From positions 1 to 21,558 of the forward strand of contig CAZCAP010000013.1 in assembly GCA_964496765.1 (NCBI GenBank): DNA of 21,558 nt, written 5' to 3'. A model generated the notes under the pieces. The model searched no databases, was not told the origin of the DNA, and saw only the letters and a list, made by a program, of their open reading frames with translations. The DNA is from an uncultured archaeon. GTDB taxonomy: Archaea; Iainarchaeota; Iainarchaeia; Iainarchaeales; CSSED10-239. This document shows positions 4,455 through 12,721 of this stretch, piece by piece. The position numbers and the translations under genes are program-made. The first letter of the stretch is position 1. Each line of letters starts with the position of its first letter.

Positions 4455-4653
4455 ATAATCACACCATTTTTATTTATTATCTAATACACTTCTATATATA
4501 AGATATATAAAGAAACCAATTAAAAAACGTTATTTAATTAATTGTTTCATTATCATATATAATTAATAAAACAAAGGGTTTATATATAATTAGTTTAGAT
4601 AAGCAAGAATTGAGCTTATTTTCCAAAAATATAGGGATTTTGATTGATATTTC

Positions 4654-4836
4654 ATGAGAATTAAAAAAATCACAATAACGAAAGAGGATTTCAATAAAAC
4701 AATTAAAGAAATTCTAATTGGGCTAGACATAAGTCCAGAAATTGTTCTTGTTAAGATAAATGGAACATTCACTCCAATCTCTGAAGTAATCAAAAAGAAA
4801 ACAGAACTAGAAATACTACATATAATTAAGTTTTAA
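4654..4836 (+). CDS. ThiS/MoaD/TtuB-like beta-grasp mini-protein lacking the C-terminal Gly-Gly
   Basis: 60 aa. TIKEILIGLDISPEIVLVKINGTFTPISEVIKKKTELEILHIIKF follows the ThiS pattern (…L..L.l…vav.vNg.ivp……l.dgD.leI...v.GG) but ends in KF. Its TAA is immediately followed by the ATG of the ttuA-like gene. A competing antisense ORF (4590..4793) exists, so coding status is not certain. Confidence 0.5.
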   Translation: MRIKKITITKEDFNKTIKEILIGLDISPEIVLVKINGTFTPISEVIKKKTELEILHIIKF

Positions 4837-5808
4837 ATGAAAGGAATGAATATGGTTATTAAATGTAATAAGTGCAAGAACCTAGCTGTAATTTATCTTG
4901 CTTATGGTAAACATAATCTTTGTATTCATCACTTTAATGATTTTTTTGAAAAAAGATTTAGAAAAACAATTAGAATGTATAACCTGGTTAGAAGTACAGA
5001 CTATCTTGGAATTGCAACTTCTGGAGGAAAGGACTCAATGGTTCTTCTCTATCTTATGAATAAAATTTATAAAAAATCAAGAATAAAAATGTGTGCGTTG
5101 TTTGTTGATGAAGGAACTCCAGGATACTCAAATAAAACAAGAGAAGTTGTGGAAACCTTTTGTAAAAAAGAAAAAATAAAATTAGTTTCATCATCCCATA
5201 AAAAAGAGTTTGGAATATCAACAGGAGAAATTGCAGAAAAATACAATAAAAAGGAAGGAACTCTTTGCACCTATTGTGGAGTTTTAAGAAGAGATACATT
5301 AAATAGACTTGCAGAAAAAGAAAAGGTTACAAAGGTTGCAACAGGACACAATCTTGATGATGAGACACAAACAGTTCTAATGAATATGTTTACAAATGAT
5401 GCAATTAGACTATTCAGAACAGGACCACTTGCAGGAATTATTGATCTTGGAGAAGATATAAGACCAAGAATTAAACCATTATATCTAACTCCTGAAAAAG
5501 AAATTGCTGCCTATGCTCTATACAATAACATACCTTTTCATGATTGCAATTGTCCTTTCTTTTCTGAAGCTAAAAGAAATATATTCAGAACTTTTTTAAA
5601 TGAAACAGAAGTAAACTATCCAGGAAGTAAATTTTCATTAATAAGATCATTCTTAAAGATAAAAGATGTAATAAATATAGACAAGATAACCACAAACAAT
5701 CACAATAAAAGCAAACTTAGAAAATGTAAGATTTGTAATAATGTATCCAGTCAAGATATTTGTGCATCCTGTAGATTACTTAAAGAATTAAAGATTGATA
5801 AATTATGA
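4837..5808 (+). CDS. ttuA: tRNA 2-thiolation PP-loop ATPase, TtuA/NcsA family (Fe-S type)
   Basis: PP-loop GIATSGGKDSMVLL. N-terminal zinc finger CNKC…CIHH and C-terminal zinc finger CKIC…CASC. Three cluster cysteines in the TtuA positions (CTYC, and HDCNCPF). Alternative starts at M4 or M6 are possible. Confidence 0.88.
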   Translation: MKGMNMVIKCNKCKNLAVIYLAYGKHNLCIHHFNDFFEKRFRKTIRMYNLVRSTDYLGIATSGGKDSMVLLYLMNKIYKKSRIKMCALFVDEGTPGYSNKTREVVETFCKKEKIKLVSSSHKKEFGISTGEIAEKYNKKEGTLCTYCGVLRRDTLNRLAEKEKVTKVATGHNLDDETQTVLMNMFTNDAIRLFRTGPLAGIIDLGEDIRPRIKPLYLTPEKEIAAYALYNNIPFHDCNCPFFSEAKRNIFRTFLNETEVNYPGSKFSLIRSFLKIKDVINIDKITTNNHNKSKLRKCKICNNVSSQDICASCRLLKELKIDKL

Positions 5809-6497
5809 AATTATTTCACTCAAAGGAAGCAAGAAATAAATTAATTAAAGTAGTAATAATTATAATCATAATTCTTGCAATTACATTCTATTTAGGATCA
5901 AGTTTACTTTCTTATTTTAAAAATGGGGTAGAAGCAAAGGAAACCATCCAATCTTTTGGAGTATTTGCTCCACTTATTATGATTGGATTAATTGTAATAA
6001 TTGTATTGCTTGCATTTGTATCCCAAATACCAGTAATTGTGGCTAGTGGATTTGCATTTGGAGCGATACATGCGTTTTGCTACGCACTAATTGGATTTTT
6101 CATTGGTGGAACAATTGCCTTCTTTTTAGCAAGATTATTTGGAAGACCGTTTGTAATTAAAATAATTACAAAAAATGCAATAGAAAAATTAGACAACTAT
6201 TCAGGAACAAGATTAAATGTAATTTTATTTCTTTTCTTTCTAGTTCCATTATTTCCTGATGCAATGTGCTATGTTGCAGGCCTAACTAATATTAAATATA
6301 AAACATTTGTGTTACTATCCATAATAGGTAGAATTCCAACAATCATTTTGTTCATAGTAGCAGGAAATTCAATCGCAAGCACAAACTATACTCTTGGAAT
6401 TGTTTTATTAGGAGTCATAGTTATTTGTGCAACCATTATATTAATATTTAGAAAAAGAATAGAAACGCATGTTGTTAATAGATTTGAAAAAAAATAA
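5805..6497 (+). CDS. TVP38/TMEM64 (SNARE-associated, DedA-superfamily) membrane protein
   Basis: 230 aa, polytopic. Family-typical GFAFGAIHAFCYALIGFFIGGTIAFFLARLFGRPF and FPDAMCYVAGLTNIKYKTF. There is an ATGA start/stop overlap with the ttuA-like gene. Confidence 0.8.
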   Translation: MKLFHSKEARNKLIKVVIIIIIILAITFYLGSSLLSYFKNGVEAKETIQSFGVFAPLIMIGLIVIIVLLAFVSQIPVIVASGFAFGAIHAFCYALIGFFIGGTIAFFLARLFGRPFVIKIITKNAIEKLDNYSGTRLNVILFLFFLVPLFPDAMCYVAGLTNIKYKTFVLLSIIGRIPTIILFIVAGNSIASTNYTLGIVLLGVIVICATIILIFRKRIETHVVNRFEKK

Positions 6498-6540
6498 GCT
6501 TATAAAAATCTTTCTAATCTATTTCCATATATCATAATTT

Positions 6541-6613
6541 GGTCCTGTAGTCTAGTGGTCATGACGTCACATTGACATTGTGGAGATCCCCAGTTCGAAT
6601 CTGGGCAGGACCA
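6541..6613 (+). tRNA. tRNA-Val (anticodon GAC)
   Basis: Hand-folded cloverleaf. Acceptor GGTCCTG/CAGGACC is 7/7 paired. D-arm GTCT-AGTGGTCA-TGAC. Anticodon stem TCACA/TGTGG with loop TT-GAC-AT. 5-nt variable loop. T-arm CCCAG-TTCGAAT-CTGGG. Discriminator A, CCA not encoded, no intron. An AT-rich TATA-like cttataaaaa lies at 6499-6508. Confidence 0.9.
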
Positions 6614-6622
6614 TCACAATTA

Positions 6623-6647: not shown

Positions 6648-8312
6648 ATGGCAGAAGATATAACGCACACAAATGAAAACACACTTGAAATTGATGAAGA
6701 AGAATTTAATGATCTTGGTAAATCCATAGAACTTAAAACACTTGCTGGACCTCTTAGATCATTAAAGTATCTTAATGAGTTTAGAGTAGCCCTAGCTAAC
6801 CCCATTAAAATACAAAAAAGTATATTACATGAAATTCTTAAAAAAAATAAAAAAACCAACTATGGAAAATTGTATGATTTTGCACACATTAAAACAATTG
6901 AAGAATACCAAACAAAAGTTCCATTGATTACCTATGAAGACATAATTCCATTTATTCAAAAAATAAAAGATGGAGAACAAAACATATTAACAAAGGATAA
7001 GGTAATTTTTCTAGCAACCACCTCAGGAACCACATCACACGTTAAACTAATTCCAGTAACAAAAGACAGAATGAAAAACTTCAAAAGAGAATTATATCTT
7101 TGGAGTGTGTATGTTCTTAAGGATCATTTAAATGTGACTAAAGGAAAGACATTGTATTTTGCTGGACCCTATATTGAAGGAAGAACCAGCGCAGGAATTA
7201 TCTGTGGAAGTATATCCGGATATCTAATTGCAAAAGCACCTTGGTATGTGAAAAGTAAGGTTGTTATTCCATCAGAAACATATAATATTTTTGATTTTGA
7301 TAAAAAAAGTAAAGAAATTGCAATAAACGCACTCATAAGTAACATAACCCAATTTGCGTTTGCATCTCCCATTGAAGCAATTCTTTTTTTAGACTACGTT
7401 GCAGAACACAAGGAAGAACTAATAATCGAACTTGAGAAAAAAGGAGAGGAAAAAAGAGCAAAAGAACTTAGAGAACTTTCTTCTTTTAGACCAATAGATA
7501 TCTGGCCTAATCTTTGTTTAATTGGATGCATTAAATCAAAGTTTAACTTACATTATCTTGATACTTTAAAAGAAAAAATAGGAAAGGATATTGAAATTAG
7601 AGATCCTGGTATATATGCTTCTGAAGGAAGATTATCCCTTGGTCTTGAAAAAGAAGGGATTGCAGGAATAATTCCTGCACACGTAACTTTTTTTGAATTT
7701 ATTGAAAAAAGAGAAAACCAAAAGGATAGAAATCCAATAACAATTGATAAGCTTGAAGTTGGAAAAAACTACGAAGTAATAATCACAACAACAGAAGGTC
7801 TTTATAGGTACAGAATGGGAGATATTGTTAAGGTAACAGGATACAAACATAAACTACCATTAATTGAGTTTGTTGATCGTGATAATTATCTAAACATAGC
7901 TGGAGAGCTTGCACATGAAAATATATTAATTTCAATAATGTATAAGGTAATTGAGGAAATTGAAATAAAAATTAAATCGTTTACATTCTTACCATATATT
8001 AAAGACCCAAGCAAGAAGCCAAGATATGAAGTTTTGATTGAACTATTTCCTGAAAGCCAGTTAGATGATGAACTTGCAATTAGATTCAAAGAACTTCTTG
8101 ATAAAACTCTAAAAGAATACATCTCTGATTATAGGCAAATGAGAGAAGAATTTGGAAGATTGGATCCACCTGTATTATCAATTGTGAAGCAGGGTGGCTA
8201 TGATGAGTTTGATAAAAAGAGAATCACTGGTGGAGGGCAACCAAAACCAATACATTTATCAAAAACAGAAAAATTCAGAGATAATTTTGAAATAATCAAA
8301 ATCTATGAGTGA
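6648..8312 (+). CDS. GH3-family acyl-acid amido synthetase-like adenylating enzyme
   Basis: 554 aa. The three GH3 (ANL-superfamily) motifs are in order: ATTSGTTSHVKLIPVT, GIYASEG, GLYRYRMGDIVKVTGYKHKLPLIEFVDR (compare plant GH3 SSGTS…K.MP, YASSE, YRVGD…V.GF.N..P.F.F). Confidence 0.85.
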   Translation: MAEDITHTNENTLEIDEEEFNDLGKSIELKTLAGPLRSLKYLNEFRVALANPIKIQKSILHEILKKNKKTNYGKLYDFAHIKTIEEYQTKVPLITYEDIIPFIQKIKDGEQNILTKDKVIFLATTSGTTSHVKLIPVTKDRMKNFKRELYLWSVYVLKDHLNVTKGKTLYFAGPYIEGRTSAGIICGSISGYLIAKAPWYVKSKVVIPSETYNIFDFDKKSKEIAINALISNITQFAFASPIEAILFLDYVAEHKEELIIELEKKGEEKRAKELRELSSFRPIDIWPNLCLIGCIKSKFNLHYLDTLKEKIGKDIEIRDPGIYASEGRLSLGLEKEGIAGIIPAHVTFFEFIEKRENQKDRNPITIDKLEVGKNYEVIITTTEGLYRYRMGDIVKVTGYKHKLPLIEFVDRDNYLNIAGELAHENILISIMYKVIEEIEIKIKSFTFLPYIKDPSKKPRYEVLIELFPESQLDDELAIRFKELLDKTLKEYISDYRQMREEFGRLDPPVLSIVKQGGYDEFDKKRITGGGQPKPIHLSKTEKFRDNFEIIKIYE

Positions 8313-8324
8313 AGTGAATCTATT

Positions 8325-9440
8325 ATGAACATATTAAAATTACCCAAAATGAAAAAAAAAGATTATACAAAATATTTTTCAAATGATTATTTTGAAGCAA
8401 GAGATAAATTCATTAATCAAACAATGGAAAAAGGAATGCAATTATCTTCTGAGGAAATAATTGATGGACTTACCTGTGATATTGCAATTTCAGAAACTAA
8501 AAAAAAAGATAAGCTTTTAATATTTGTATCAGGAACCCATGGTGTTGAAGGATACATTGGTTCTGCGTTTCAATTAATGTTTCTTGATAGATATTTTGAT
8601 AAATTAAAAGAAAGTACATCCATTATGTTTATTCATGCGCTAAATCCATATGGATTAAATAATAATAGAAGAGTAAATGAAAATAATGTGGATATTAATA
8701 GAAACTTTTGTGAAGATTTTAATAATATTAAAATAAATCCAAAAATATTAGAAATAATTAAAACAAATGAAAAAATATTTGTTTCTGGGAATCCTAGAAA
8801 AAATAGATTATATGAAAATTATAAATTATATACAACCATATTAAAGTCAGTTATAAAAAATGGAATTGTACAGGCTGTTGAGGCTGGAGTAGTAGGACAA
8901 AATCTATACCCAAAAGGAGTAAACTATTCAGGAATCGCTCCAGAAAAATCTAATGAAGTATTTTCAAATGTAATTTCTAAAGTTACAGAAGGTTATAGTG
9001 AAGCAATATTAATTGACCTGCACACAGGAATAGGAAGAAAATATGAAATGAAAGGATCTACCTATCATCCAAAGAACTCTGATGAATTTAAACTGTGTAA
9101 AAAAATGGTTCACACACTTGCAAGCCACACTGGAATACATATATACAACACATATGCTCTTGGGAAAGGATTTTTAAGATCAACAAAAGCTAAAAAAAAT
9201 TATGAAATTCTTGTTGAGTTTGGAACCATATCAGATATTTCAAGCACATTATCTGCAAATTATTTAACACACCTACTGGTTGTAGAAAATCAAATTACAT
9301 TCTATGGTCCTACAAAAAAATTAGAGCGCATTAGAAAAAAAATGAAAAAAGCCTATTATCCACAGGAAACACTCTACAAAATGTTTTTGTCTAGGCAAGT
9401 AAACAAAATTGGAAAAAGATTATTAAAAATATGTAATTAA
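8325..9440 (+). CDS. M14-like zinc hydrolase (DUF2817 / succinylglutamate desuccinylase-aspartoacylase-like)
   Basis: 371 aa. HxxE zinc motif in SGTHGVEGYIGS, third His in IDLHTGIG, plus HALNPYG and NNVDINRNF, typical of this subfamily as I recall it. It starts 12 nt after the GH3 stop. Confidence 0.72.
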   Translation: MNILKLPKMKKKDYTKYFSNDYFEARDKFINQTMEKGMQLSSEEIIDGLTCDIAISETKKKDKLLIFVSGTHGVEGYIGSAFQLMFLDRYFDKLKESTSIMFIHALNPYGLNNNRRVNENNVDINRNFCEDFNNIKINPKILEIIKTNEKIFVSGNPRKNRLYENYKLYTTILKSVIKNGIVQAVEAGVVGQNLYPKGVNYSGIAPEKSNEVFSNVISKVTEGYSEAILIDLHTGIGRKYEMKGSTYHPKNSDEFKLCKKMVHTLASHTGIHIYNTYALGKGFLRSTKAKKNYEILVEFGTISDISSTLSANYLTHLLVVENQITFYGPTKKLERIRKKMKKAYYPQETLYKMFLSRQVNKIGKRLLKICN

Positions 9441-9640: not shown

Positions 9641-9717
9641 AAACTAATGGATTGCTAGGCAAAATAAAGTTATTTAAATTATTCCATTCCTATTCCTAAC
9701 AGAAAGAGTTGTTGATT

Positions 9718-10800
9718 ATGAATGAATATTTTATAAATTATCTAATTGATATAATTGTTTTGGCAATTGTTTATTTTCCACTAACTATATTTTCGTTCAA
9801 AAGATTATTTAAATACCTTAATTTAAAATACACAAAAGGAATATTGTATTTAATTATAAGTATATTTCTTTTGTTACCAATATCATTAATTATACAACAA
9901 ACATTAAACACAAGATTTACAATTACCTTATATTATTTAGCGTATCTGTTAATTGGAACAATGCTTTATTTCATGATATTTACTATTCTCCTAGAACTAA
10001 TCAGATTATTATTTAGATTTAAGAAAAAATATTATAAATATCTAGGATATGCAGTAATCATACTCACTCTTTTTGTAAGCATCTATTCCTATGTAAACAC
10101 ACTAAGCTACAAGGAAGAAACAATTATTATTACATCTCCAAAAATAGAACAGGATATTAGATTGGTTCAATTATCAGACATTCATTTATTTGGTGCTCAC
10201 TCAAAAACCAGATTCAATGAAATTTATTTGAAAGCAATAAATAAACATCCAGACTTTATTGTAATTACAGGGGACTTTTTTGATTACCCAGGAAAAATTT
10301 CAGAAGATACAGTAAACATTGTTAATGATTATAATATCCCTGTATTCTTTGTTTATGGAAATCATGATGTTATGGTTGGGGATGAAATTGTAGATAATAT
10401 TCTATATCAAACAAATATCATAACATTAAATAATGAAACCTATTCAATAGATGGAATTACGTTAACTGGTATTAAAGACAAGGATACAAAAACCTATCTT
10501 AATGATGCATTAAATAATATAGATATAAATAAAGATGAATATAACATTCTTTTAAATCACAAGCCACAGGAAGTAGATATTGCAAGTGAAAAGGGTTACG
10601 ATTTAATGTTATCAGGGCACACCCATGCTGGACAACTTTTTCCAATGAACCTAATTGAATACCTATTTAATCCCTATTTCAGAGGGCTATACGAGATTGG
10701 TGATCTGAAATTATATGTTAACCAGGGAACCTATGTTTGGGGATTTAAAATGAGAAACTTTTCAAGAAATGAAATAACAATATTTGAACTAAAAAAATAA
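9718..10800 (+). CDS. Membrane-anchored metallophosphoesterase (calcineurin-like)
   Basis: Four N-terminal TM helices, then the full MPE motif set: LSDIHLF, ITGDFFD, VYGNHD, LNHKP, SGHTHAGQ. The ORF track starts at a TTG (9709); I prefer the ATG at 9718. Confidence 0.85.
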   Translation: MNEYFINYLIDIIVLAIVYFPLTIFSFKRLFKYLNLKYTKGILYLIISIFLLLPISLIIQQTLNTRFTITLYYLAYLLIGTMLYFMIFTILLELIRLLFRFKKKYYKYLGYAVIILTLFVSIYSYVNTLSYKEETIIITSPKIEQDIRLVQLSDIHLFGAHSKTRFNEIYLKAINKHPDFIVITGDFFDYPGKISEDTVNIVNDYNIPVFFVYGNHDVMVGDEIVDNILYQTNIITLNNETYSIDGITLTGIKDKDTKTYLNDALNNIDINKDEYNILLNHKPQEVDIASEKGYDLMLSGHTHAGQLFPMNLIEYLFNPYFRGLYEIGDLKLYVNQGTYVWGFKMRNFSRNEITIFELKK

Positions 10801-10820
10801 ATCAATTGGCAGAAGATTAT

Positions 10821-11543
10821 ATGAAATTACTGGTTACAATTCCTGCAAGGAATGAAGGTGAAGAATTAAAAAAAAAGATGGCAAGATTATATAATTATCT
10901 AATTAGTAAAAAATTTGATTTCACACTTGAAATTGTTGATAGTGCATCAAACGACAATACCTACTTGATTGCGAAGGGTCTTACTAAAGAATACGCGAAT
11001 ATTAATTGCATATCTCTTAAAAAAAAAGGTAAATGGAGAGCAATTAAAGCATCCTGGAACAAAGCAGACAAAAAATATGATATTATCTCTTTTATGGATG
11101 CGGATTTAGCAACAGACATAACCTATTTTCCAAAATTAATAAAAGTAATTAATGAAGATGGTTATGATATAGCTATTGGCTCAAGATATTCTGTTGGTTC
11201 AAAAACAAAAAGAACCTTTTTAAGAAATCTTATTGGAAAGGGATTTATATTTCTTCAAAAAATCTTATTTAATACAAGCTACAAAGACTCCCAATGTGGG
11301 TTCAAAGCAATAAAACATGATAAATACAATTTAATTAAAAAGCACCTGAAAAATAATGAATTTGGAGGGGATATGGAATTGCTTATCATCTCTGAAAAAA
11401 TATATAAATATAAGATTAAATCAATTCCTGTTGCCTGGGAAGAACAAAAGAACACAACCATAAATTTTTGTAAAACAATAACTTCCTTCCTAAAAGATCT
11501 ATGGGTATTATTTTGGTTTATTAAAATTAAAAAAAATGAGTAA
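10821..11543 (+). CDS. Family-2 glycosyltransferase (dolichyl-phosphate sugar synthase-like)
   Basis: MKLLVTIPARNEGEEL N-terminus, DxD in FMDADLATD, QCGFKA segment. The ORF track starts at TTG 10806; ATG 10821 gives the typical GT2 N-terminus. Confidence 0.85.
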   Translation: MKLLVTIPARNEGEELKKKMARLYNYLISKKFDFTLEIVDSASNDNTYLIAKGLTKEYANINCISLKKKGKWRAIKASWNKADKKYDIISFMDADLATDITYFPKLIKVINEDGYDIAIGSRYSVGSKTKRTFLRNLIGKGFIFLQKILFNTSYKDSQCGFKAIKHDKYNLIKKHLKNNEFGGDMELLIISEKIYKYKIKSIPVAWEEQKNTTINFCKTITSFLKDLWVLFWFIKIKKNE

Positions 11544-11545
11544 TA

Positions 11546-11971
11546 ATGATAATAAAATATATTAAAAAAATATTAAGTAAACTACCTTTCTTTAAAAGAA
11601 TTGAATTGATGTTTGATTATGCAACCATATCTTTATTTGCAACAATAGTCGATGTACTTCTATTGTATGCATTAACTGAATTTTTAAATATTAATTATCT
11701 AGTATCAGCAACCATTTCCTATTGTACAGGATTATTGATTTCATTTTATTTACAAAAAACATATACGTTTAAGGAACAGCACACAAAAAGAATACACCTT
11801 CAGTTTACTAAATTCACAATCATTTCTCTTATTGGATTATTGTTAAACCTAATTATTTTAAAGGTATTTGTAGAGATAGGTGTTTGGTATATATTTGCAA
11901 AAATAATTGCAATAATTATTGTTTTCTTTTGGAACTATTTAATAAATAAAAGAATAACCTTCAAAAAATAA
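11546..11971 (+). CDS. GtrA-family membrane protein
   Basis: 141 aa, four TM helices, C-terminal FFWNYLINKRITFKK typical of GtrA-like proteins. It starts 2 nt after the GT2 stop. Confidence 0.78.
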   Translation: MIIKYIKKILSKLPFFKRIELMFDYATISLFATIVDVLLLYALTEFLNINYLVSATISYCTGLLISFYLQKTYTFKEQHTKRIHLQFTKFTIISLIGLLLNLIILKVFVEIGVWYIFAKIIAIIIVFFWNYLINKRITFKK

Positions 11972-12721
11972 CTATAATTTTAATGTTCTTCTTGGTTTTG
12001 GCTTTCGTTCAACCTTTTTTATGGGTTTTGGTTCTTTGTTTGGAACAAAGGCTTTCTTTAGATGCTCTTCAAATCTAGTTATTATCTTTGCTGTTCTTGG
12101 TTTCTTTGATGATAGAATATATATTTTTTCATCAAAATACATGTTTCTTACTGTCCCATACACTCCAAGCATATTAGTATAATGGTTAATTCTTATTTGT
12201 GACATTCTAAGTTCATGTTTAATATCTTTTATTTTTCCAGTAAGTTCGTTTTTGTGAGTAGAGGTGAGAAATTGGCTCTCCAGTATTTCTAATTGCTTTT
12301 CAAGTCTTATTTCTTCTTTTTTAAAAACGCCTCTAGTTTCCTTCCATCCTTTTATCTCATGGACCAATGATTCATTAAACTTCAATTCATAGCCTTGCTT
12401 AATAAAAGGGGTTGATGCAAAAATTAGTGCTTCAAAAACAGGCTCAGTCCATGGTCTTTCATACCTGGATGTACTTTCACCAAGTTTAACCCCCTGTACT
12501 AGCCCAATTTTTATATTCTTATTTTCAACAAAATAGTTAACAACACCTATTGGTTCATTTTTATAATAGGTTACAAGCATAACTTCTGATGGTCTATGTA
12601 CATGATAGGTATCACCAACAGGAAACTTCCAATCAGTTAATGCTTTTATTGATACGTCCTTTGGGTGTGGTGTACTAATTATTATGTTTCTTATATTTCT
12701 TGCAACATTCACTTTATTCAT
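11972..12721 (-). CDS. Hypothetical protein (249 aa): globular N-domain, coiled-coil middle, Lys/Pro-rich basic tail
   Basis: Last gene of the rnhB operon, starting 7 nt after the upstream stop. Coiled-coil-like EEIRLEKQLEILESQF…IKDIKHELRMSQIRI. Tail PNKEPKPIKKVERKPKPRRTLKL. I recognise no family. Confidence 0.55.
   Translation of the reverse strand: MNKVNVARNIRNIIISTPHPKDVSIKALTDWKFPVGDTYHVHRPSEVMLVTYYKNEPIGVVNYFVENKNIKIGLVQGVKLGESTSRYERPWTEPVFEALIFASTPFIKQGYELKFNESLVHEIKGWKETRGVFKKEEIRLEKQLEILESQFLTSTHKNELTGKIKDIKHELRMSQIRINHYTNMLGVYGTVRNMYFDEKIYILSSKKPRTAKIITRFEEHLKKAFVPNKEPKPIKKVERKPKPRRTLKL

Follow-up and report, generated by a model that had tools for sequence, protein, structure and literature searches.

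The 21,558-nucleotide (nt) stretch of DNA analysed here (the window), contig CAZCAP010000013.1 of an uncultured archaeon of the Iainarchaeota (assembly GCA_964496765.1), encodes a protein of 60 amino acids (aa) directly upstream of ttuA, the gene for a tRNA thiolase of the TtuA/NcsA family. This small protein is, on the evidence of profile matches and a predicted fold, a genuine homologue of the TtuB/ThiS-type beta-grasp proteins, but it ends in Lys-Phe where sulfur carriers of this type end in Gly-Gly. Its open reading frame (ORF) is a real gene under purifying selection, and we favour the reading, with a probability of roughly 0.55, that its product is a degenerate TtuB retained, without thiocarboxylation, as the partner of a TtuA which would use sulfide or persulfide. 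An earlier note on this DNA had proposed three explanations for the locus: a carrier that has lost its E1 pathway and is kept as a non-covalent partner, a fusion protein interrupted by a stop codon, or a small ORF that is not a carrier at all.

The features on which the argument turns are the following.

4579..4589, + strand: TATA-like box TTTATATATAA, about 65 nt 5' of the small ORF, read from the sequence of a very AT-rich spacer
4654..4836, + strand: TtuB/ThiS-like beta-grasp gene of the K-type ('Lys-ended'), 60 aa, ending ...IIKF-TAA (basis: ORF, homologues, ratio of nonsynonymous to synonymous substitution rates (dN/dS), AlphaFold2, Foldseek)
4828..4836, + strand: the tail, with Lys59 (AAG 4828-4830), Phe60 (TTT 4831-4833) and TAA 4834-4836
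4837..5808, + strand: TtuA/NcsA-family [4Fe-4S] PP-loop tRNA 2-thiolase, 323 aa from ATG 4837, with alternative starts at 4846 and 4852

The small protein and its tail

The small ORF runs from ATG 4654 to TAA 4834-4836, and its product (MRIKKITITKEDFNKTIKEILIGLDISPEIVLVKINGTFTPISEVIKKKTELEILHIIKF, MRIKK...LHIIKF) contains neither a GG nor a Cys anywhere. A search of 5.8 billion proteins returned 17 homologues of 59-60 aa and one 78-aa call, the named relatives being metagenome-assembled genomes of Iainarchaeota (DPANN), and a further profile round brought the family to 23 distinct K-type sequences. These share 22 invariant columns across three genera, the new terminal Lys among them, and dN/dS between the closer pairs is 0.07-0.2, their synonymous sites being saturated or close to it; the small ORF is thus a gene maintained by purifying selection and not a chance frame. 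Fifteen contigs from several samples encode exactly this 60-aa protein, and 1.2 kb around the end of the gene, including the TAAATG that joins it to ttuA, is identical to the window in all six of the independently assembled contigs that were checked, so that an assembly error is very unlikely. The antisense ORF 4590..4793, which the earlier note had left open as the possibly conserved frame, was discarded: it is interrupted in three orthologues, its ends are not conserved, and AT-rich codon bias alone keeps the frame open.

The resemblance to sulfur carriers exceeds what chance would give, although it stays under the cut-offs of curated models. The 60-mer matches Pfam ThiS with an E-value of 0.0028 (18.6 bits, under the cut-off of 22.5) and Pfam SAMP2 with 0.019, and the NCBIfam ThiS and SAMP2 models are likewise sub-threshold (16.8 bits for TIGR01683, against a cut-off of 37.45), so that the curated cut-offs of both databases are missed. 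Such sub-threshold matches to ThiS or SAMP2 nevertheless recur in 12-14 of 17 K-type family members (14 for SAMP2). When a hidden Markov model (HMM) of the family was run against 1.84 billion cluster representatives, 12 proteins matched, eight of them from outside the family. These eight, with E-values from 1e-7 to 8e-4, are carriers of 62-66 aa plus one 112-aa protein with a C-terminal carrier domain, and all end in Gly (VFGG, VVSGG, IISGG or SSG).

Structure prediction, which had been suggested as a check of the beta-grasp assignment, bears it out. With a shallow alignment of 17 sequences AlphaFold2 gave a poor model (predicted local distance difference test, pLDDT, 64.6), and with 57 sequences a model of pLDDT 88.6 having the strand-helix-strand order of a beta-grasp, although the larger alignment contains GG carriers which, legitimate homologues as they are, make the model lean towards them. 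Searched with Foldseek against the PDB, this model retrieved at ranks 1-5 the TtuB chains of Thermus thermophilus TtuA-TtuB complexes (5GHA, 5ZTB; template modelling (TM) scores 0.69-0.75), followed by ThiS (2CU3, 1F0Z, 1ZUD), MTH1743 and SAMP2, over a TM range of 0.57-0.75. At the sequence level the best PDB matches of the family profile are again TtuB; they are non-significant and have in common the motif L..L.(I/L)NPE.V. The small protein also keeps the TtuB-subfamily signature L..L.I.PE.VLV, in common with Thermus TtuB. The ThiS/MoaD/TtuB pattern, the KF end and the lack of an internal GG, all pointed out in the earlier note, are therefore borne out by the ORF and its profile matches. A six-frame scan of the window's genome with PF02597 gave zero matches and missed this ORF too, so it says little about other carriers. 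Some sources annotate family members as 'sulfur carrier ThiS'; on the evidence below, TtuB-derived, non-carrier beta-grasp protein should be the more apt description.

It is the tail that sets the family apart. All 23 K-type members end in [I/V/T]-K, or in this Lys plus one variable residue (F, N, I, M or V), and all 34 of the nearest outgroup carriers end in Gly (21 in GG, 10 in SG, 3 in RG). None of the 23 has an internal GG that trimming could expose, nor does the family have a conserved Cys. The Pfam and NCBIfam alignments stop two or three positions short of the profile ends, and the profiles place K59 at the x of x-G-G and F60 at the first Gly, with the last Gly missing; the K-type tail is one or two residues shorter than that of a carrier. 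Because all 23 end in Lys or Lys plus one residue and all 34 outgroup proteins in Gly, the loss of Gly-Gly is ancient and fixed. With no GG, no Cys and no E1 found (see below), the 60-mer has none of the means for thiocarboxylate or persulfide chemistry, and it cannot serve in the conventional way, either as a carrier of thiocarboxylate or as a modifier of proteins. The proposal that the small ORF is not a carrier at all hence survives as to chemistry and fails as to ancestry, the protein being a homologue with the carrier fold.

Two groups of relatives deserve mention in their own right. A TtuB-like subgroup (proteins P0024, P0033-P0037 and P0042-P0049) ends in SSG or SRG and not in GG, and in the one genomic context read, an Aenigmarchaeota-type contig (L064 5001-6710), a gene for an HD-domain protein lies between carrier and ttuA. 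The closest Gly-Gly-ended relative of the K-type family is P0021 (L055 365-553), a 62-aa protein with an IVFGG end and the same short N-terminal hairpin, encoded on a 1.1-kb metagenome contig where it does not adjoin ttuA; it may represent an intermediate lineage.

The downstream thiolase and the junction

The enzyme encoded by ttuA has what a thiolase of this family needs. The SGGKDS PP-loop, the two zinc fingers and the three Fe-S cysteines recognised in the earlier note are all present: the PP-loop is S62GGKDS, the zinc fingers are C10/C13/C29/H32 and C297/C300/C309/C312, and the cysteines C144, C147 and C239 align with those of Pyrococcus horikoshii TtuA (PH0300). R151, the basic residue at +4 from the second of these cysteines, corresponds to Lys137 of T. 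thermophilus TtuA (C133+4), a position that is Arg in Thermotoga maritima (PMC7138817). Pfam ATP_bind_3 is matched at 2.5e-20, with TtuA_LIM_N and zn-ribbon_14 sub-threshold, and the best structures in the PDB are PH0300 TtuA (2e-44), Methanococcus maripaludis NcsA (1e-39) and T. thermophilus TtuA (5e-34).

As for its specificity, NCBIfam NcsA (9e-59, 199 bits, cut-off 500) scores above Pyrococcus TtuA (166 bits, cut-off 450), both staying under the equivalog cut-off. The window's genome has no second PP-loop ATP_bind_3 gene, and tRNA-Lys(UUU), tRNA-Glu(UUC) and tRNA-Gln(UUG), the U34 substrates, are all present in it. With a single paralogue and these substrates at hand, an NcsA-like activity on U34 appears likelier than a TtuA-like activity on U54. 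The genome further encodes SufS-family and IscS/NifS-family cysteine desulfurases above NCBIfam cut-offs, and a supply of sulfur therefore exists.

How the two genes meet is less telling than it first looks. As the earlier note had reported, ATG 4837 abuts TAA 4834-4836 with zero spacer and in the same frame, but the emphasis placed on this arrangement proved to be a red herring, since it belongs to this genome and relatives have other frames and stops. Six further genomes of the clade have both genes. In five of them the reading frames differ, the small ORF stops at TGA or TAA, and the two genes overlap or are a short spacer apart; the sixth, G109, has them at the ends of separate contigs. 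At L001, the most closely related locus, the frame is shared, but the sequence F*I*G*MEIV puts three stops between the genes. Tight junctions are in any case common in the window's genome (34 four-base overlaps and three abutments among 333 close pairs). The in-frame, zero-spacer TAA-ATG is thus genome-specific and incidental, and the comparison of orthologues that had been suggested for GG ends, fusion and the TAA gives a clear picture: all 23 are Lys-ended, none is fused, and the TAA junction is not conserved. What does persist is gene order, the small ORF being directly 5' of ttuA in six of the seven clade genomes.

ATG 4837 may not even be the true start of ttuA. Orthologous TtuA N-termini (MNIKC, MVKC) match M6 of the window ORF, the orthologues start at positions equivalent to M4 or M6, and on five of the six independent contigs the start was called at 4852, which leaves a 15-nt spacer containing AAAGGA. 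The two genes are presumably co-transcribed, because there is no space for a promoter between them, and the TATA-like box at 4579..4589 is a possible archaeal promoter for the pair. At the other end, the TGA that ends ttuA overlaps, within ATGA (window 5805-5808), with the start of the next gene, which encodes a VTT-domain protein; one public contig call of the Joint Genome Institute (JGI) runs ttuA through this TGA to 330 aa (L059), probably a gene-calling quirk. In G109, about 110 nt of GC-rich sequence follow the small ORF up to the contig end (G109:C27, L004 3181-3311) in an otherwise AT-rich genome; the GC-rich stretch has no match in Rfam, and the two G109 contig ends do not overlap.

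Distribution, E1 enzymes and inheritance

Phyletic counts were made on 151 genomes sampled evenly from the class. Seven have the K-type gene, all belonging to family f1 (genera g1, g2 and g4), and the gene was never seen without ttuA in the same genome. TtuA itself is found in 131 of the 151 and, within f1, in exactly the seven that have the K-type gene. Genus g3 has neither: none of its five genomes (G093, G104, G115, G123, G126; L090, L091) has the small ORF and none has TtuA/NcsA, so these organisms would be without 2-thiolation of the wobble uridine. At the syntenic site in g3, rpl15e is followed directly by the VTT gene, small ORF and ttuA being absent as a unit.

No enzyme that could charge a carrier in the usual way was found in f1. 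A true ThiF/E1 above the curated cut-off occurs in 15 of the 151 genomes, and a search with PF00899, whose controls were matched in 12 of 14 known genomes, found none above cut-off in 12 f1 genomes and had no match in the window's genome (738 kb, 26 contigs, 86% complete). In an f1 genome of 840 kb that is assembled as a single contig, the sole PF00899 match is a Rossmann motif of 19.8 bits. A separate observation concerns genome G000, where a 132-aa ORF (G000:C2:92606-92878, L009) has an intact JAMM/MPN+ motif (HSHP...S..D), with a weak match to Pfam Prok-JAB (E-value 4e-4) and none to NCBIfam; neither an E1 nor a Gly-Gly ubiquitin-like protein was found in that genome.

The sister orders (f25, f26, f28) present a different picture. 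All 16 genomes encode a carrier that reaches the last position of the profile; the 14 carriers retrieved all end in VVSGG or VASGG, and 13 of these abut or overlap ttuA. A true E1 is present in 12 of the same 16 genomes, and in G005 carrier, ttuA and thiF are clustered. More distantly, Micrarchaeota and Aenigmarchaeota have GG- or SSG-ended relatives near ttuA. The other families of the window's own order have TtuA with neither an upstream carrier nor an N-terminal fusion; what looked like carrier domains fused to the N-terminus of TtuA in these families was rejected, the long upstream open frames being non-coding read-through.

In a maximum-likelihood tree of 47 TtuA proteins, the f1 clade (100/100) and the remainder of the order form sister groups (98/96), with the sister-order enzymes outside, from which vertical inheritance of the pair follows. 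The simplest history would be that an ancestral ttuB(GG)-ttuA pair was served by an E1, that the E1 was then lost in the order, that the carrier was lost in most families, and that a carrier without GG was retained in f1.

A retained partner of TtuA and its alternatives

The mechanism that we favour builds on what is known of related enzymes. TtuA and NcsA bind sulfide on the free iron of a [4Fe-4S] cluster held by three cysteines and can thiolate tRNA with inorganic sulfide (PMC7138817, PMC10067955), and in Thermus the C-terminus of TtuB (TtuB-COOH) ligates this unique Fe, the binding of TtuB stabilising the cluster (PMC7138817). We infer that the K-type protein would still bind TtuA where TtuB did ancestrally, as an accessory subunit without a covalent link, and that sulfide or persulfide taken up by the free iron would be the sulfur source of the enzyme. 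The partner might stabilise or shield the oxygen-labile cluster or else gate the active-site channel, in which the long side chain of Lys59 would fill the space once occupied by the Gly-Gly tail.

Several observations speak for the small protein as such a partner: no E1 was found in f1, GG carriers occur with E1 in the sister orders, TtuA is inherited vertically, the gene is under purifying selection, and both genes are absent together in g3. This is the best fit among the explanations proposed in the earlier note, the complex itself being conjectural. Other observations weigh against it. TtuA alone suffices in most of the order, so that a partner is not generally required, and the tail, one or two residues shorter, may not reach the cluster. 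A test of TtuA columns was weak: eight columns are common to f1 and the carrier-partnered enzymes and have been lost where there is no partner, two show the opposite, and the differences are mostly conservative (Y/F, T/S, A/G). In G109, small ORF and ttuA are on different contig ends. Finally, at 86% completeness of the window's genome, the absence of E1 rests partly on relatives, including the single-contig 840-kb genome.

Part of what follows concerns the genes further downstream, all on the same strand.

5805..6497, + strand: VTT/DedA-type membrane protein (Pfam VTT_dom 3e-21), its start overlapping the ttuA stop by 4 nt
6540..6615, + strand: tRNA-Val(GAC) (ARAGORN, Rfam), between the ttuA unit and the GH3-M14 genes
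6648..8312, + strand: GH3 adenylating ligase (Pfam GH3 N, M and C domains)
8325..9440, + strand: M14-like zinc peptidase

The VTT/DedA gene, kept beside rpl15e in g3 where small ORF and ttuA are absent, is probably outside the system, and tRNA-Val(GAC) has the same position in G013, G076 and G097. A functional link of the GH3 and M14 genes to the small protein is hypothetical. Were there such a link, M14 could trim the variable last residue and GH3 adenylate the carboxylate thus exposed, for thiocarboxylation or conjugation, which would be a new, non-E1 way of charging a ubiquitin-fold protein. We see this as a long shot. GH3 and M14 do occur in exactly the same seven of 151 genomes as the K-type gene; they are syntenic just 3' of ttuA in five, with VTT, tRNA-Val or both, or else a short spacer, in between; both modules are missing from g3, in two separate gaps that flank the retained VTT gene (L090-L091); and the variable residue after the invariant Lys is mostly hydrophobic (F, I, M, V; also N). 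However, the whole neighbourhood is syntenic in the clade and the pattern is that of a single clade, so adjacency and distribution carry little weight, and the second g3 gap removes further genes too (9709 to 12721). A tRNA gene separates the two units, GH3-M14 is on another contig in G097, and GH3 orthologues (47-57% identity) occur in Woesearchaeota/Nanoarchaeia in unrelated contexts without TtuA, M14 or carrier. Known GH3 substrates, moreover, are small acyl acids.

A more serious competitor of the partner reading, albeit still an unlikely one, is that the protein has been recruited to a role unrelated to TtuA, such as RNA binding or service to some other partner, and has merely inherited its place in the gene order. 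Beta-grasp domains are versatile, the G109 ORF is intact at a contig end without an adjoining ttuA, and the protein is basic (isoelectric point, pI, about 9). This last point loses its force in view of the GG-type relatives and the proteome (median pI 8.9), relative to which there is no charge shift; furthermore, the gene never occurs without ttuA in the same genome and is lost with it in g3, the two are tightly spaced or abutting in six genomes, and the TtuB-subfamily signature has been kept. That the gene is a decaying ttuB relic, devoid of function, is very improbable: the tail that defined carrier chemistry has gone, and most of the order has lost the gene altogether, but a relic does not fit with a dN/dS of about 0.1 in the face of synonymous sites that are saturated or nearly so, with 22 columns, terminal Lys included, held invariant over three genera, or with a length fixed at 59-60 aa and not one frameshift in 23 sequences. 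A fusion, finally, whether hidden by stop read-through or recently broken by a nonsense mutation or an assembly error at 4834-4836, was suggested by the in-frame ATG immediately after the TAA and can in practice be set aside. The same junction recurs in six independently assembled contigs from several samples, the 23 homologues are without exception free-standing 59-60-aa proteins with stops of their own, five clade genomes use different frames, the G109 genes lie on separate contig ends and L001 has three stops; tight junctions are, besides, ordinary in this genome, and a ttuA start at 4852, which lies 15 nt past the stop, is preferred by gene callers and by comparison with the N-termini of orthologues.

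The pair can be compared with several known systems. Its best structural match, TtuB of the T. thermophilus TtuA-TtuB-TtuC-TtuD system (5GHA, 5ZTB), has the same fold and a gene likewise paired with a TtuA-family thiolase, but Thermus TtuB has a Gly-Gly end that is thiocarboxylated by the E1 TtuC and a C-terminus that ligates the unique Fe (PMC7138817), whereas the K-type protein ends in Lys or Lys plus one residue, is one or two residues shorter and comes from genomes in which no E1 was found. Haloferax volcanii SAMP2/NcsA/UbaA, which follows the logic of Urm1/Ncs6/Uba4, is also an archaeal pairing of a ubiquitin-like protein with an NcsA-type U34 thiolase, except that SAMP2 needs its GG and UbaA for thiolation and conjugation, and the K-type clade has neither. 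The window enzyme is nearest to PH0300 and M. maripaludis NcsA, two of the carrier-free, sulfide-using enzymes (T. maritima TtuA is another), with which its clade shares the lack of a thiocarboxylate pathway and the likely use of sulfide or persulfide on the [4Fe-4S] cluster (PMC10067955, PMC7138817); those organisms have no TtuB-like gene beside the enzyme, in contrast to the window clade, which keeps one under selection. The closest sequence relatives of the K-type family (30-45% identity) are the GG- or SSG-ended DPANN carriers of the sister orders, Micrarchaeota and Aenigmarchaeota, whose genes likewise precede ttuA (immediately in most lineages, with one gene in between in Aenigmarchaeota) and which differ in ending VVSGG, VFGG or SSG and, in the sister orders, in being accompanied by a true ThiF-type E1 in 12 of 16 genomes. 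Full-text searches of the literature returned no account of GG-less TtuB-like partners of TtuA/NcsA in DPANN. ThiS/MoaD-like beta-grasp families without GG are reportedly known in general terms, from surveys by Iyer, Burroughs and Aravind.

To our knowledge, the sole role assigned to TtuB, SAMP2 and Urm1 beside tRNA thiolases is that of donating thiocarboxylate sulfur (and of modifying proteins). A carrier fold kept under selection long after Gly-Gly and, on present evidence, E1 were lost implies a second job that does not depend on thiocarboxylate, which the carrier would perform on its enzyme, for example by protecting the cluster, by gating or in assembly. The small ORF and ttuA would offer a simple two-protein system in which such roles of TtuB beyond sulfur delivery might be approached. 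One class of Archaea moreover displays three states, namely (i) a GG carrier with E1, (ii) a Lys-ended carrier without E1 and (iii) the enzyme alone, which together would form a natural and testable series for the dismantling of ubiquitin-like sulfur relays in reduced genomes.

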